Shown here: one piece after another, positions 18,001 through 24,000 of the stretch
Numbering within the stretch: the first letter of the stretch is position 1
How the letters are laid out: every line of letters starts with the position of its first letter
Assembly (NCBI GenBank): GCA_965204735.1
Contig: OZ242008.1
Span: 1,248,001 to 1,312,000, forward strand
Length of the DNA stretch: 64,000 nucleotides
Source of the DNA: Longimicrobiales bacterium
GTDB taxonomy: Bacteria; Gemmatimonadota; Gemmatimonadetes; Longimicrobiales; Gaopeijiaceae
Direction: 5' to 3'
Position numbers: made by a program

Positions 18001-21000
18001 TGCCCGCCAGCGCGGGGCCGATCCCGGCGCGGCTCGGGTCTCGAGAGGGCGGGGACGCGAAGAAGGCCGGGTCCAGCGCCTCCCAGCCGCGCGCCGCCAG
18101 GACGCCCGCCAGCAGCGCCAGGCCGGCGGCGGCGGTCCAGGCGCCCGCGCCGCACGCCGTCCCGGCCTTGCCGTGGCGACGGAAGAACTTCACGGGTGCA
18201 GGGCCCCCAAGCGGGCGGCGGCTCCCGGGCCTGCGCCGAAGCCTCGACGGCGGCCGAAGCCTCGACGGCCGCGGGGGGACGGACCGGGCCGTCGGGAGAG
18301 GAGCGCCCTGCCCGCCGCATGGGTTCCGAAGGCGAGAAGGAAGAGGACCGCCGCGGCGGCGAAGACGGCCCGGTAGGCCAGCGTGCCCGGCGCGGCGTCG
18401 CCCATGTTCATCTGGGCGATGAAGGTGGTGAGGGTCCGGAGCCCTTCCAGGGGACTCCACGCCAGACGGGCCTGGTTGCCCGCGGCCATCGTCACGATCA
18501 TCGTCTCGCCGGCGCCCCGGGCCAGGGCGAGAACGACGGCCGCCGCGATCCCCCGGCCCGCGGCCGGCGCGACGACGCGGGCCAGGACCCGGCCCCGGCT
18601 CGCGCCCAGCGCCAGTCCCGCCTCGAGCAGCGAGCGGGGAACCGAGTCCAGCGCCTGCCGCGACACCACCGCCACCGTAGGCAGGATCATGAGCCCGACC
18701 ACCAGGCACGCGGCCAAGCCGTTGAAGGGCTCGACGGTGGGCCAGACGCGCCGGAGCGCGGGCGTGACGAACTCAAGGGCGAGGTAGCCCAGCACCACGG
18801 TGGGCACGCCGGACAGCAGAGTCACCGACGCGGACAGGAAGCGCTCCGTCCGAGCGCCGGCGTAGTAGGCAAGGTAGGCGGCGGTGGCCAGACCGGCGGG
18901 CGCGGCGAAGAGCGCGGCCCCGGCGGCGACCTGCGCCGTGGCGGCCAGCAGGGGGAGCACGCCGAAGCGAGGCTCCTCTGCGAACGGCGCCCACGAGCCT
19001 TCGGTCAGGAACCGCGCCAGAGGGACCTCGGCAAAGAACGACGCCGTCTGCCGGGCCAGCGCCCAGACGACCGTGGCGAAGGCCGCGGCCGCCACCAGGG
19101 CGCATGCGGCGAACGCCCACCGGGCCAGCCGCTCGCCGAGCGCGCGGGACGCCGTGGCCGCCCCCGAGAAGCCGTCGAGGTTGGCCCCGGGGCCGGACTT
19201 CGTCGGAGAGCCGGTCGGCGTCGAGGCGCCCGCGAGCCTCACCAAGCCGTCCGCTCCAGCAGAGCTTCGCTCCGGGCGTGCTCGCCGGCGGGGAGGGGGA
19301 CGTACCCGGCCTCTGCGGCGAGCGCCTGGCCCGCCGCGACGAAGAACGAAGCGAACTCGCGGACCGCCGGCCGCGCCAGGGCGGCTTGGCGGACGTAGAT
19401 GTAGAGGTCGCGCACCAGCGGACTGTAGCGACCGTCGGCAAGGGACTCGCGGGACGGGAGCACGCAGCCGAAGCCCGCGTCCACCGCCACGGCCTTGAGC
19501 GCCCCTCGGTTGGCCTGGTAGTGGGCGTAGCCGAAGTATCCCAGCGCCCACCGGTGCCCGGCCACGCCCCGAGCCACCAAGTGGTCGCTTTCGGTCTGAT
19601 GGTAGTCGGCGCGGCTGGCGCCCGTCCGGCCCGCCACCACCCTGGTGAAGAAGTCGAAGGTGCCCGAGTCGGGACCCGGACCGTAGAGGCGCACTTTCTC
19701 GGCGGGCAGGCCGGGACGCAGGTCGCGCCAAGTGGCCACGCGGCTCGACGGCGCCCAGACGCGCTCCAGCTCGTCCAGCGTCAGGCACTCCACGCCGTGG
19801 TTGCCCGGGTTGACCACCACCGTCAAGCCGTCCCGGGCGACGGGAAGCGCCAGGTAGCGGGCGTCGGTCCTCCGGCAGCGAGCTTCCTCCTCCTCCGTCA
19901 TGAGGCGCGAGGCGCCCGCCACGTCCACTTCGCCCTCGCAGAGCCGCCTGAAGCCGCCTCCCGAGCCCGAGAGGCTCACCGCCACGCGATGCTCGGGGCT
20001 GCGGCGCGCAAACTCCTCCGCCACCGCTTCCGCCAGCGGACCGAGAGTGCTCGACCCTCCGACGGCCACCGCTCGCCCAGGGTCGCCGCTCCCGCCGGGC
20101 GCGCACGCCAGGAGCAGAGCGACGGCCAGACCGGCGCCCGCGGCGACCCCGCGAGCCGCCGGGCGACCGGCTTCCTCGCCGCCCGCCGTTCCCTCCAGCG
20201 GCAAGGTGAAGCCGATCGTCGTGCCCGCGCCCAGCGCGCTCTGCGCAGAGACTTCGCCCCCCATGCTGGAGACCAGGTGTCGGACGATGGCCAGTCCCAG
20301 TCCCGTGCCGCCGCCCGGTCGGGAGCGGGCCGCGTCGATCCGATAGAAGCGCTCGAAGATGCGCGGCAGCGCGGACGCGGGGATGCCGGCCCCGTTGTCG
20401 CGCACGGCGATCCGCAGCCGTTCGTCCTCCTCGTCGATCTCCACGCGGACCCGGCCGCCCTTGTCGGGGACGTGCTTCATGGCGTTCTCGAAGAGGTTGC
20501 GAAGCACCTGATACACCGCCTGTTCGTCCCCCGACGCCACCCCGTCTCCCGAGACGCTGAACTTCACCCCGCGGGCCGCGGCTTCGTCCTCCATCTCCTC
20601 CCAGACGGACCACGCGACTTCGCCGACGAGCACCGGCGCGTGCTGGGGGCGCCAAGCGCCCGACTCGTACCGGGAAAGGTCCAGCAAGTCGTCCACCATG
20701 CGCTGCAGCCGCACGGTGTTGCGCCCGATGGACCGAAGGAACTGGCTGCGAAGCTCCGGGGGCACGTCTTCCTCCAAGACCGTCTCGGCCGCGACGCGAA
20801 TGACGGTCAGCGGCGTCTTCAGCTCGTGGGAAGCGTTGGCCACGAAGTCGGAGCGCACCTCCTCCAGTCGGCGAAGCTCCGTCACGTCCACCAGGACGGC
20901 CACGGACTCCCCCTCCGACCCCCGAGTGGTGCGCACGTCCAGCTTCCGCCCGCCCAGATCGATCTCCAGGCGGCCCTCGCGCCGGTCCACCGACTTCTCG

Positions 21001-24000
21001 AGCAAGTCGCGGAGGACCGGGTCCCGCACGACCGAGCCCACGGGGGCCAGCCTGGGCACGTCCGCTACGCCGAGCAGCTTCTTCGCCGCCGGGTTGATGC
21101 GCAGGATGCGGGCGTCGGCGGTGAGCGCCACCAGCCCCTCCGCCACCCGGTCCACCAGCCCCGCCAGCTCGTCCCGCTCCCGAGCGGCCCGCGCGGACTG
21201 CACGTCCAGCTGGGTTCGCGCCCGGTTCGCCGCCGAAGCCGTGCGGGCAAGCTCGGCCACGGGCGAGAGCGGCGCCCTGGGACCGGCAGGCCGCCCGGCG
21301 CCGACGCCCGAGAGCAGGCCGCCCACGGCGTTCAGCGACCGGACGACGCCTCCGAGGAACCAGTGCAGCGCCGCGATCGAGACGACGGCGGCGGCCAGCA
21401 CGGCCAGGGCCGCGTTGCGCGCCGCCCGCGCCGCAGCCTCCTCGACGGGCTCGGCCGGGGCGCCGAAGCGGACCACGACGGTCTCGCCGCGCCAGTACGC
21501 CCGGGCCGCGGCGAAGACGTAGGGACGCCCGTCCACCTCCCCCGCGCGCCGGGAGAACGTCACCGCCCGGGCGTCTCGAAGCGCCTCTTCCACTTCGGGG
21601 CGCTGCGTCCCGCCCGCGGCCTCCAGCGCTTCCGCGCCGTCGGCGAGCTGCGGATCCGCCACCAGCTTCATGTCGCCGTCGAAGACGCTGGTCCGGTACC
21701 GGGTCGTGGCGGCCAAGGCGCTGGCCACGCTGTCCAGGGCGAGGTCCTGGGACGCCCGCAGCCGTTCGGCCCCCAGCCGCACCGCGCGGCCCAGGTGCTC
21801 CCGGACCTCCTCCGTCAGGGCCCGCTCGGTGGTGGCGCGGGTCGCCGCCCAGGCCGCCGCCGCCGCGAGCACGGCCGCCCCGGCCGCTCCCGCCAGGGCG
21901 GCAGGCCGCAGCGCAACCCTCACGCGCGCCTTCCCCGCTCGGCGGCCACGGCCCGGCTACCGTCCTCGGAACCGATACCCGAACCCTCGGACCGTCTCGA
22001 TCCAGCCGCCCGCCTCGCCCAGCTTGGCGCGCAGGCGGCGAACGTGCATGTCCACGGTTCGGGTTCCGCGCCTGCCGCCCAGCCGGTGCTTCGCGTCCTG
22101 GTCCCAGGCTTCGCCCAGGAGCTCTCGGCGGCTCTGGGTCCGCCCCCGGCGCTCCATCAGCGTCTTCAGCAGCCGGAACTCGGTCGGCGTGAGCTGGACG
22201 CGCTTTCCATCCACCGTGACGGCGTTCGACCCCAGGTCGACCCTGAGAGGACCCCTGGAGAGGACGCGGGCGCCGGCCGCGGGCGCCACCCCCTCGCCCT
22301 GGGCCCGTCGCAGGATCGCCTCGATCCGGAGCATCAGCTCTCGGGAGCTGAAGGGCTTGGAAAGGTAGTCGTCCGCTCCCAGCTCCAGTCCCTCGATCCG
22401 GTCGTCGCGGTCGTCCTTGGCGGTGAGCATCAGCACGGGCAAGCCCTTGGTCGCGGGCTCTTCCCGGATCGCCCGGAGCACGTCGTCGCCCGACGCGCCG
22501 GGAAGCATCCGGTCGAGCACCACGAAGTCGGGGATCTCGCGGCGGAGCGAGAAGAGCCCCTCGACGCCGTCGGCCGCCGTCTCCACCCGATACCCGGCCT
22601 TGGCGAGCTGGTAGGCGACGAGACCGGCGATCTCCGCGTCGTCCTCGACCACCAGCACTCGGGACCGGGGCTTGGGCACGCGGGCGCGGGCGATGCCGCC
22701 GCTCACTTGGCCGGCTTCCCGCTCGCGGCCCCGCTCGCCTTCGCCACGGCCAGCACTTCCGCCTCCGACAGTGTGTGGTCCGCCGACTTGGCCTTCTGCA
22801 GGACGCGGGCGGCCAGATCCGGGTGGCTCGGGTCGTACCCCCGCTTCGCGAGCCAGTACTTGACGTTGGAAAGCCCCGACATCGGGCCGATCTCGATCTG
22901 CTGACGACGGCCCACCATCGAGGCGGGCACGCTGGAGTACACCCGGTCCGCGAGCCAGCGGGCCCCCTTCGCTTCGGCCTTGACGATGGCGGCCGCGTGG
23001 ACGCCGGTGGCGGTGCGGAAGGCGTCGGCGCCCAGGACGGGGTAGTTGGGCGGAAGAGGCACGCCGCACTCCTGCGCGACAAGCTCGCAGTACTCGGCCA
23101 GGCGGGTCAGGTCGGCGTCGTGAACGCCGGCCATGGCCAAGTTCACCAGCAGCAGGTCCATCTCGACGTTGCCCACCCGCTCGCCGATTCCCATCGCCGT
23201 GCCATGGATCCGGTCGGCGCCGGCGTCGATCGCGGCCAGGGCGCCGGCCAAGCCCAGTCCCCGGTCTCGGTGGCCGTGCCAGTCGAGCTTCACGTTGGCG
23301 CCCGAGGGATCGACGATCTCGCGGCGGACGAAGCGGATCAGCGCTCGAACGCCCGACGGCGTGGCGTGGCCCACGGTGTCCGAGAGGCAGATCCGCCGGG
23401 CGCCCCACTCGATGGCGTGTCCGTAGAGCGCCTTCAGCGTCTCGGGGTCGGCCCGGGTGGTGTCCTCGGTGACGAACATGACCGGCAGCCCCTCCTTCAC
23501 GCAGAACTCCACCGACTCCTCGGCCGTCCGCAGCATCGTGTCCAGCGACCAGTCCTCGGCGTAGAGGCGGATCGGGGAGCTGCCGATGAACACGCACACC
23601 TCCAGGCGAACGCCCGTCTTCTGGGAGATGCGGGCGGCGGGCTCCACGTCGGCCAAGACGGTGCGTGCGGCGCAGTTGGGCGCCACCGCCAGTCGCGAGT
23701 CGCGGATCTCCTCGCAGAGGCGCGTCACGTCGTTCACGGCCCGGGGGCCCGCGCCGGGAAGCCCCACGTCGGCCGCGTGTATGCCGAGCTCGGCCATGAT
23801 GTGGAGCAGGCGGACCTTGGCCTCGATGGGAGGGTCGGTCACCGAGGGCGACTGGAGGCCGTCGCGCAGCGTCTCGTCGTCCAGCTCCACGTGGCGGCCC
23901 CACGACAGCGTGTCGAACTCGGCGACGTTCCAGTCGTGGATCAGCCCTTGGTGCTCGAGCCCCTCGGGCTCCGCTTCGCCGTGCTTCATCTCGCCTCCGT

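Follow-up and report, generated by a model that had tools for sequence, protein, structure and literature searches.

Organization and integrity of the fused gene

In the genome of the Longimicrobiales bacterium analyzed here, the phosphate sensor kinase PhoR and the phosphate-binding protein PstS are encoded by one open reading frame with a lipoprotein signal retained in its middle. The fusion itself is confirmed. Judging from sequence, we consider it on balance probable that a single chain would be lipidated by Lgt and split by signal peptidase II into PhoR and a lipid-anchored PstS.

The fused gene (19239..21923, minus strand) lies in the window, i.e., the whole stretch of 64,000 nucleotides under analysis; all features listed below are located on the same strand. 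It starts with GTG and encodes 894 amino acids, PhoR preceding PstS. The first transmembrane segment, TM1 (21840..21911, approximately aa 5–28), was predicted from hydrophobicity and is followed by a putative extracytoplasmic alpha/beta domain without a Pfam match (21429..21839, approximately aa 29–165) and by a predicted TM2 (21348..21428, approximately aa 166–192). Strands of a PAS-like domain (20886..21149, approximately aa 259–346) were present in the predicted model of the fused protein, while Pfam gave no PAS match here and weak PAS_8 matches in relatives. The features expected of a histidine kinase were found: a HisKA domain (20658..20855, aa 357–422) with the phospho-accepting His366, invariant across 93 aligned sequences, and a HATPase_c domain (20193..20531, aa 465–577) with intact N, G1, F, and G2 boxes. 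A variable cytoplasmic linker, the former n-region (20151..20192), carries Arg587 and Arg591 and contains neither a stop nor a start codon; it leads into an internal h-region of 15 uncharged residues ending in Leu-Leu-Ala (20106..20150, aa 592–606) and the lipobox Cys607 (TGC, 20103..20105), the predicted site of lipidation and cleavage. The PstS domain, SphX-like and of the S-type, occupies 19335..20081 (aa 615–863, Pfam PBP_like_2); this part has no separate gene and no N-terminal signal, its signal being at aa 587–607. The HisKA, HATPase, and PstS limits given by the survey's finding were reproduced exactly by Pfam, and the GLAVALLLAC stretch that it had pointed out is indeed present, with its Cys607 at 20105-20103.

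The PstS part scored 224 bits against TIGR02136, above the cut-off of 206.6. The kinase part was below the cut-offs of the curated PhoR families (TIGR02966, 253 vs. 334; NF008235, 173 vs. 390), and its top curated match was PnpS (NF046044, 281 vs. a cut-off of 400); the name PhoR thus rests on the gene context, since the kinase is encoded beside phoB, pst genes, and phoU. As had been described, phoB (21957..22706) is upstream of the fused gene, and pstC (18190..19242), pstA (17351..18193), pstB (16539..17354), and phoU (15839..16522; the sole copy found in the genome) are downstream. The GTG start of phoB overlaps the stop codon of a gene for an HMGL-like enzyme directly upstream (22703..23989) within GTGA, pstC starts with a GTG that shares bases with the stop codon of the fused gene, and pstA and pstB also begin in GTGA overlaps; PstB scored 318 bits, below the TIGR00972 cut-off of 343.

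Positions 18900–22300 were recovered on one contig with no gaps in three of four sequencing runs (two studies), and the fourth run covers the region piecewise. Among the 30 strain differences listed inside the frame (24 further ones exist), 22 were synonymous, 8 were missense, and none introduced a stop. The length of 894 aa was found in 12 of the 13 members of the 90% cluster of the window protein.

An AlphaFold model of the fused protein had a mean pLDDT of 80 and a pTM of 0.39, with aa 579–613 below 50; a fold search with this model retrieved separate kinase and PstS folds only. Modeling two copies of the PhoR extracytoplasmic domain together with the PstS domain as a complex was uninformative (score of 0.01).

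Distribution and origins of the fusion

The bacteria carrying the fused gene belong to a sponge-associated group. The fusion was found in all four genomes (four species) of the genus, both parts lying in one frame in 3/3 congeners, as had been reported. It was claimed for the whole genus, which holds for its four species, but it is not limited to the genus: a sister genus (genome G193 and several protein clusters) and P0040 have it as well, and outside the genus it arose separately. The trees, from both of which P0039 was omitted as a probable frameshift join and from one of which the long-branched P0040 was omitted, indicate five or six independent origins, and a single origin is rejected. 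The unpublished genomes G025 and G322 were among those searched, and no claim beyond this rests on them.

Among 15 clade genomes, the phoR|pstS junction was fused in five; at the seven remaining junctions, most of which overlap as well, fusion was recorded in 1 of 101 cases, although the five fused genomes had been picked for being fused, the genomes are non-independent kin, and the "fused" call for G121 is false, its stop being visible. We propose that the fusion recurs because genes with a stop-start overlap need only one small mutation to fuse and because the cleavage site already present would leave the fusion almost without cost. The clade offers a readable series, in which the gene first stands apart behind a Pho-box-like repeat of its own, then overlaps by 4 nt, and finally is fused, alongside a second transporter. 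No description of a PhoR-PstS fusion or of a natural internal lipobox was found in our literature searches.

The internal lipoprotein signal and predicted processing

Every one of the 79 distinct fused sequences has a [GA]-Cys ahead of PstS. Among the surrounding 32 positions in the 16 genus-clade clusters, no other is invariant; since the lipobox Cys was found by searching for Cys, its column is invariant by construction, and the weight lies in one being always present. The linker in these clusters is 26–79 aa long and 40% conserved; overall, 26–127 aa precede the Cys, and within the genus clade 11–44 aa follow it. The h-region is short and Ala-rich and resembles those of unfused relatives, its uncharged run being 11–19 residues in 21 fused proteins vs. 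11–21 in 37 unfused loci. The basic residues, the uncharged run, and Leu-Leu-Ala-Cys607 are those of a lipoprotein signal; position −2 departs from the strict consensus [LV][ASTVI][GAS]C (PMC8048626), from which unfused relatives deviate as well (ALAC, LFAC). The genome encodes lspA, above its cut-off, and an lgt match at E 1e-29, below its cut-off; lnt was not found by a TIGR00546 search.

In the proposed mechanism, TM1, TM2, and the cytoplasmic kinase would be followed by the old PstS signal acting as a third membrane segment, which would send PstS to the periplasm. Once Lgt had attached diacylglycerol to Cys607, cleavage just before this residue by signal peptidase II would yield, in an exact 1:1 ratio, a PhoR that ends in a short hydrophobic stretch and a lipid-anchored PstS of the ordinary kind. 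Sensing would proceed by the usual route from PstS through PstCAB and PhoU to PhoR. The PstS part probably reaches the periplasm, because it is under purifying selection (dN/dS of 0.26–0.32 within the genus) and its predicted ligands are kept. The survey's wording, one chain that is either tethered or split, fits all tests, and we lean towards splitting in view of the invariant lipobox Cys, the h-region, lspA, and lgt: a cut-and-anchor signal kept in the middle of a gene suggests that a single chain is probably synthesized first and split afterwards. The kept Cys would also fit lipidation without cleavage.

Alternative explanations

The main rival, which we regard as possible but doubtful, is a chain that stays whole, lipidated or not, as a three-helix kinase with a periplasmic PstS tail; this tail might dock on PstCA and hold PhoR at the transporter, or report phosphate binding directly. 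The putative topology, N-in with three membrane segments and PstS outside, would permit such a tether, and five or six separate origins may mean selection beyond tolerance. The fused chain is also conserved over its whole length across species approximately 65% identical, and the uncharged run of 18–19 residues in the G002 branch is enough for a membrane helix. In the other fused branches, however, this run is just 11–15 residues long and polar, and a plain membrane helix would not need the invariant [GA]-Cys. Rigid signal transfer is unlikely, because linker lengths vary on both sides of the Cys. In a related reading, to which we give a similarly tentative place, the chain would be whole or partly cut, and PstS, hung from the C-terminal helix of the kinase, would clamp PhoR onto PstCAB-PhoU; a dedicated lower-affinity sensing complex would then have evolved five or six times, with signal peptidase II processing as a possible switch.

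It is unlikely that the frame yields two products, PstS being translated separately as well, from a start inside the frame, while PhoR simply reads through into it. Such a start could be the GTG that lies in frame within the HATPase motif MGGD-V of G001, G002, G003, and G193: the G-rich stretch before it scores −9.3 kcal/mol against the anti-SD, and GTG occurs at that codon in just 3 of 23 unfused loci. The window has GTC there, however; the G-run simply consists of Met-Gly-Gly codons, and comparable combinations of GTG/ATG with SD scores occur 2–6 times per frame by chance. The resulting signal would comprise at least 46 residues, including the last HATPase strands, and 65 of the 79 fused linkers lack Met. 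Near the h-region no internal start codon is conserved among the fused sequences; the possible starts in the window are TTG at −33 and ATG at −53 only, neither with a Shine–Dalgarno match.

Still less credible is tolerated decay, in which PstS1, with pstS2 available, would be a passenger tail after the loss of a stop codon. In its favor, PstS1 motifs that are nearly invariant outside the clade have drifted inside it, and the dN/dS of PstS1 is about 1.7 times that of PstS2 (0.26–0.33 vs. 0.16–0.19). Against decay, the drift is older than the fusion, being seen in unfused sister genomes as well. PstS1 also retains its full length in each of the 16 genus-clade clusters, where 121 of its 271 columns are invariant and none of the four internal Cys is lost; Asp698, Ser753, Gly754, Thr755, and Arg838 are retained in 16/16, and six of the seven strain differences in the PstS domain are synonymous.

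An assembly artefact, i.e., an indel joining two overlapping genes, is refuted for the genus by the gap-free contigs from two studies, the fusion in 4/4 species, and the full-length cluster members, and is practically excluded, although in two clade sequences, P0039 and P0192, the HATPase is broken and a frameshift seems to have joined the genes, and the refutation does not extend to single-member clusters such as P0038.

Predicted phosphate ligands and the second pst operon

The best structure match of the PstS part was PDB 4JWO (E 3e-72). Its predicted phosphate ligands are S624, S625, T626, S654, S672, D698, S753, G754, T755, and R838; like an S-type PstS, it has a counterpart for every SphX ligand and for the Asp-Arg-Thr/Ser triad, as mapped by residue spacing and not by alignment to the SphX sequence, whereas, unlike SphX, it has an internal signal. 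At the position equivalent to SphX Thr17, Ser occurs in 30 of the 32 clade sequences vs. 1 of 25 others, near-duplicates P0002, P0006, P0008, and P0023 having been dropped from the ligand count in favor of their genomes. The Thr-to-Ser change weakens phosphate binding in SphX (PMC13614923). The window PstS keeps Thr at this site and has Ser in place of Thr45; G001 keeps the Thr as well, which speaks against reading all of these proteins as low-affinity forms.

The genome contains another complete pst operon, pstS2-C-A-B-B, with a free PstS encoded behind a Pho-box-like repeat (C1:2904530–2904545). The fused gene is the only pstS of its own operon, as had been stated, but not of the genome, and the implication that a sole binding protein is wired to the sensor was wrong. 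The repeat precedes pstS1 in none of 20 clade loci vs. 12 of 22 others, and pstS2 in 14 of 18 loci; pstS2 itself was detected in 19 of the 20 clade genomes, and of the 12 genomes that keep the pstS1 repeat, 2 have it. In G001 the second operon was not found, but its flanking genes were missing too, so the absence may be only apparent. PitA-type transporters (PF01384) were absent from all five genomes searched. The fused operon probably represents a low-level constitutive sensing transporter, given the lost repeat and the coupling to a housekeeping gene, and the second operon is probably the PhoB-induced uptake system; the repeat of the second operon and the Thr-to-Ser change in the clade also point to the sensing role. 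The clade thus offers a testable split of sensing and uptake Pst systems in sponge-associated bacteria.

Comparison with known systems

The gene set corresponds to the PhoR/PhoB-PstSCAB-PhoU system of E. coli and Caulobacter (PMC11208175): the same genes lie in one operon, and the kinase, transporter, and PhoU are intact. Unlike in the classical Pho system, PstS forms the C-terminal third of one chain with PhoR, without a promoter or start of its own, and the fused PhoR has an extracytoplasmic domain of approximately 135 aa, which PhoR lacks according to that source; it also describes signaling from Pst transport to PhoR as still debated. Two Pst systems are also present in Streptococcus pneumoniae (PMC4913102), where one of the two distinct transporters with its PhoU controls the two-component system, while the other is induced in low phosphate and its operon adjoins the two-component genes. 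Nothing is fused there, and in our genome the operon adjoining phoBR is the one without the Pho-box-like repeat.

Cleavage of the chain would make it a naturally occurring bacterial polyprotein, with the lipoprotein pathway acting on a signal approximately 590 residues inside a membrane kinase; other such cases would be missed, because lipoprotein predictors and annotation pipelines assume N-terminal signals. If it is uncut, it would provide a covalently pre-assembled handle on Pst-PhoR communication, in effect the long-proposed PhoR-PhoU-Pst signaling complex in a naturally covalent form, suited to purification and structure work. Either outcome is unusual.

The title of Hayashi et al. of 1985 (PMID 2985611) points to a precedent, the processing of internalized prolipoprotein signals. 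That work reportedly concerned an engineered fusion. The FbcH precursor of Bradyrhizobium, which belongs to a respiratory complex, is cleaved by a type I-like peptidase. The fused protein resembles both in having an internal signal usable by a signal peptidase to split a chain, and differs from them in that a sensor kinase is predicted to release a lipoprotein. In BvgS and EvgS, Venus-flytrap binding domains are N-terminal, above the signaling helix. Like them, the fused protein joins a histidine kinase to a solute-binding fold; unlike them, it carries the binding domain after the HATPase, behind a lipobox, and is not of the BvgS type.

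The Fused Gene and Its Operon

The phosphate sensor kinase and phosphate-binding protein, reported by the survey to be fused, were encoded by one frame of 894 aa (21923 to 19239, minus strand) with a high third-position G+C content along its whole length. HisKA (357–422), HATPase_c (465–577), and phosphate-binding (615–863) domains were recovered with Pfam where the survey had placed them; the gene order, with phoB upstream and pstC, pstA, pstB, and phoU downstream, was the same as well. The PstS part (PstS1) scored over the TIGR02136 (PstS) cut-off of NCBIfam. The PhoR models of NCBIfam matched the kinase part with scores below their cut-offs; therefore, the name PhoR was taken from the gene context. 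The start of phoB lies over the stop codon of an HMGL-like gene, and overlaps continue between most of the genes that follow, which suggests constitutive coupled expression of the fused operon.

Elsewhere in the window, a large protein (7726–12729, minus strand) of a kind that we take to be common in sponge symbionts, with leucine-rich repeats and a metallopeptidase-like HEFGH motif at its C-terminus, and a transposase-like frame, presumably IS1380-like (3125–4597, minus strand), were encoded.

Junction and Proposed Processing

After the HATPase domain, a variable linker is followed by Arg587 and Arg591, 15 uncharged residues, and Leu-Leu-Ala-Cys607. Across 16 clusters of the genus clade, conservation was 40% in the linker, where no column was invariant, compared with 83% in PstS and 93% in the His domain. 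A Gly-Cys or Ala-Cys pair preceded PstS in 79 of 79 distinct fused sequences; because this Cys was located by searching for one, only the fact that it is always there carries weight. The stretch of uncharged residues was 11–19 long in 21 fused proteins and 11–21 long in 37 unfused loci, a likeness indicating that the h-region has stayed signal-like. Leu-Leu-Ala-Cys607 deviates from the strict lipobox, given as [LV][ASTVI][GAS]C in a passage of PMC8048626, at position −2, as do some unfused relatives. The lspA gene was found over its cut-off and lgt under its cut-off (E 1e-29), while lnt gave no match with one model (TIGR00546) in this 98% complete genome; its lipoproteins may be diacylated, or a divergent Lnt-type enzyme may be used.

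We consider it somewhat probable, judging from sequence, that PstS is exported by the third hydrophobic segment, lipidated by Lgt at Cys607, and released by signal peptidase II as a normal lipoprotein in a 1:1 ratio with PhoR. In 1985, Hayashi et al. reportedly showed that internal prolipoprotein signals are processed, a precedent for such a route. Alternatively, the PhoR–PstS chain could remain uncut as a permanent tether, which we regard as rather unlikely. Translation of PstS from its own start inside the frame is a still more doubtful explanation: a GTG in an MGGD-V motif behind a G-run is common to four other fused genomes, but the window has GTC at this codon, and equal start and SD scores turn up 2–6 times per frame. 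Within 90 codons of its Cys, the window had just two in-frame NTG codons, ATG at −53 and TTG at −33, with no SD match. If PstS is released as proposed, the fused unit would act with PstCAB and the sole PhoU to sense phosphate via the usual Pst–PhoU–PhoR route (as outlined in part of PMC11208175) and would then turn on a second pst operon.

Phosphate-Binding Domain

The best solved relative of the PstS part was 4JWO. Passages of a study on SphX (PMC13614923) list Ser15, Ser16, Thr17, Thr45, Ser63, Ser146, Gly147, and Thr148 as phosphate ligands and include Asp89 and Arg231 in a triad; Thr17Ser lowers the affinity from nanomolar to micromolar, while the abstract terms the wild type itself micromolar. 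Mapped by spacing, all ligand and triad positions were kept in PstS1 of the window, with Ser replacing Thr45. The Thr17 position was Ser in 14 of 16 sequences of the genus clade, 16 of 16 of the related genera g66 and g61, and 1 of 25 others. By simple counting on G+C-rich DNA, dN/dS was 0.26–0.33 for the PstS1 domain (four relatives and the sister of the fused g66 genome) and 0.16–0.19 for PstS2, encoded by the second operon. Taken together, the kept ligands, the Thr17-to-Ser pattern, and dN/dS indicate at the sequence level a PstS1 domain that is kept yet relaxed or retuned, a change that began before the fusion. That PstS1 is a passenger, a tolerated leftover, seems very improbable to us.

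Among the matches listed, P0010, P0012–P0019, P0021, and P0041 comprised proteins of about 620–715 aa with tandem PstS domains by score and one PstS–permease fusion (PF12849 and PF00528).

Second pst Operon and Repeat Sites

A complete second operon, pstS2-pstC-pstA-pstB-pstB, with two pstB copies, adjoins a flotillin-like gene (C1:2900086–2904400, to 2904545 with the repeat). PstS2 is a free lipoprotein of another subfamily (29% identical to PstS1) behind the same Pho-box-like repeat that stands before pstS in many outgroups. Only two matches to the repeat pattern occurred in the genome, before pstS2 and before a TonB-dependent-receptor-like gene. The latter locus (C1:3816773–3822552), where a triple GTTAC repeat precedes the receptor-like gene and, about 5 kb downstream, a second phoB (60% identical) is found, probably belongs to the Pho regulon. 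In congener G002, one 16-mer matching the repeat pattern is present in six copies, which probably lie within a mobile element.

The pstS2 gene was present in 19 of 20 genomes of the clade of the genus, g66, and g61, and in 2 of 12 outgroups with the repeat before pstS1; kin among these genomes are not independent. The sole exception in the clade, a 92% complete congener (G001), also lacked both flanking genes.

Distribution and Origins of the Fusion

The fusion is real and recurrent. Four public runs were compared over 18900–22300; in three, from two studies, the region lay on a single contig with 0 gaps, and two of the three are recorded as sponge metagenomes. Among the strain differences listed, 30 lay in the frame (22 synonymous, 8 missense, and 0 stops), with 24 further differences beyond the listing. 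An assembly artefact is scarcely conceivable. The closest named match, a Longimicrobiales bacterium, is also fused, and named relatives are Gemmatimonadota.

The claim that the whole genus carries the fusion held in 4 of 4 genomes; it is not confined there, since G193 of sister genus g66 is fused too. These five were the only fused junctions among 42 loci; at E 1e-45, the junction query matched 93 of 251 family genomes. Both parts were present in 23 of the best 120 proteins matched (for one of them, P0039, a frameshift probably explains the join) and in 3 of the best 150 matches among 1.84 billion representatives. Elsewhere, where phoR and pstS were adjacent, 0 of 22 pairs from 80 metagenome loci and 1 of 33 from 80 GTDB loci showed the fusion.

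In outgroups, phoR is separate from pstS, often with a direct repeat, GTTAC-N6-GT(T/G)AC, between them, which we take to be Pho-box-like; 12 of 22 loci outside the clade had it, as against 0 of 20 inside. Unfused clade genomes mostly have a 4-nt stop/start overlap of phoR and pstS, and fused forms are without both the stop and the start codon. In 15 clade genomes, phoR and pstS formed one frame in 5 cases, overlapped in 7, and stood apart in 3, as against 1 fused and 72 overlapped among 101 at the other seven junctions; the five fused genomes were chosen knowingly, so this is a contrast, not a rate. In one locus (L071), pstC and pstA share a frame, joined via a short tandem peptide repeat.

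Explaining the fused label on a quick tree (65 rows; HATPase and PstS combined) took 6 changes, of which well-supported branches forced 5, and a single fused clade was rejected (AU p 4e-57, 32 rows). One 90% cluster of 11 members mixed 3 fused kinases with 7 unfused ones, so the fusion of phoR and pstS is still going on. Since the two branches of the genus differ in the junction, there may have been two events even within it. The genomes nearest the fused cluster P0040 belong to another family and were unfused in 10 of 10 loci with both genes seen (16 loci given). In family f7, phoR and pstS either overlap or stand close together, and the repeat is absent; P0040 (9 members) is related to f7, a case of the same fusion reached by a parallel route.

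Comparison with Known Systems

No description of a PhoR–PstS fusion was found in the open-access library searched; passages of a Gemmatimonadota survey (PMC10581226) mention pstSCAB and PhoR–PhoB once and no fusion. The fused unit would work like Pho–Pst, with parts from known families, whereas its PstS, unlike an ordinary one, has neither a gene of its own nor its signal at the N-terminus. Streptococcus pneumoniae has two Pst systems (PMC4913102, in part), a split comparable to that between the fused and the second operon.
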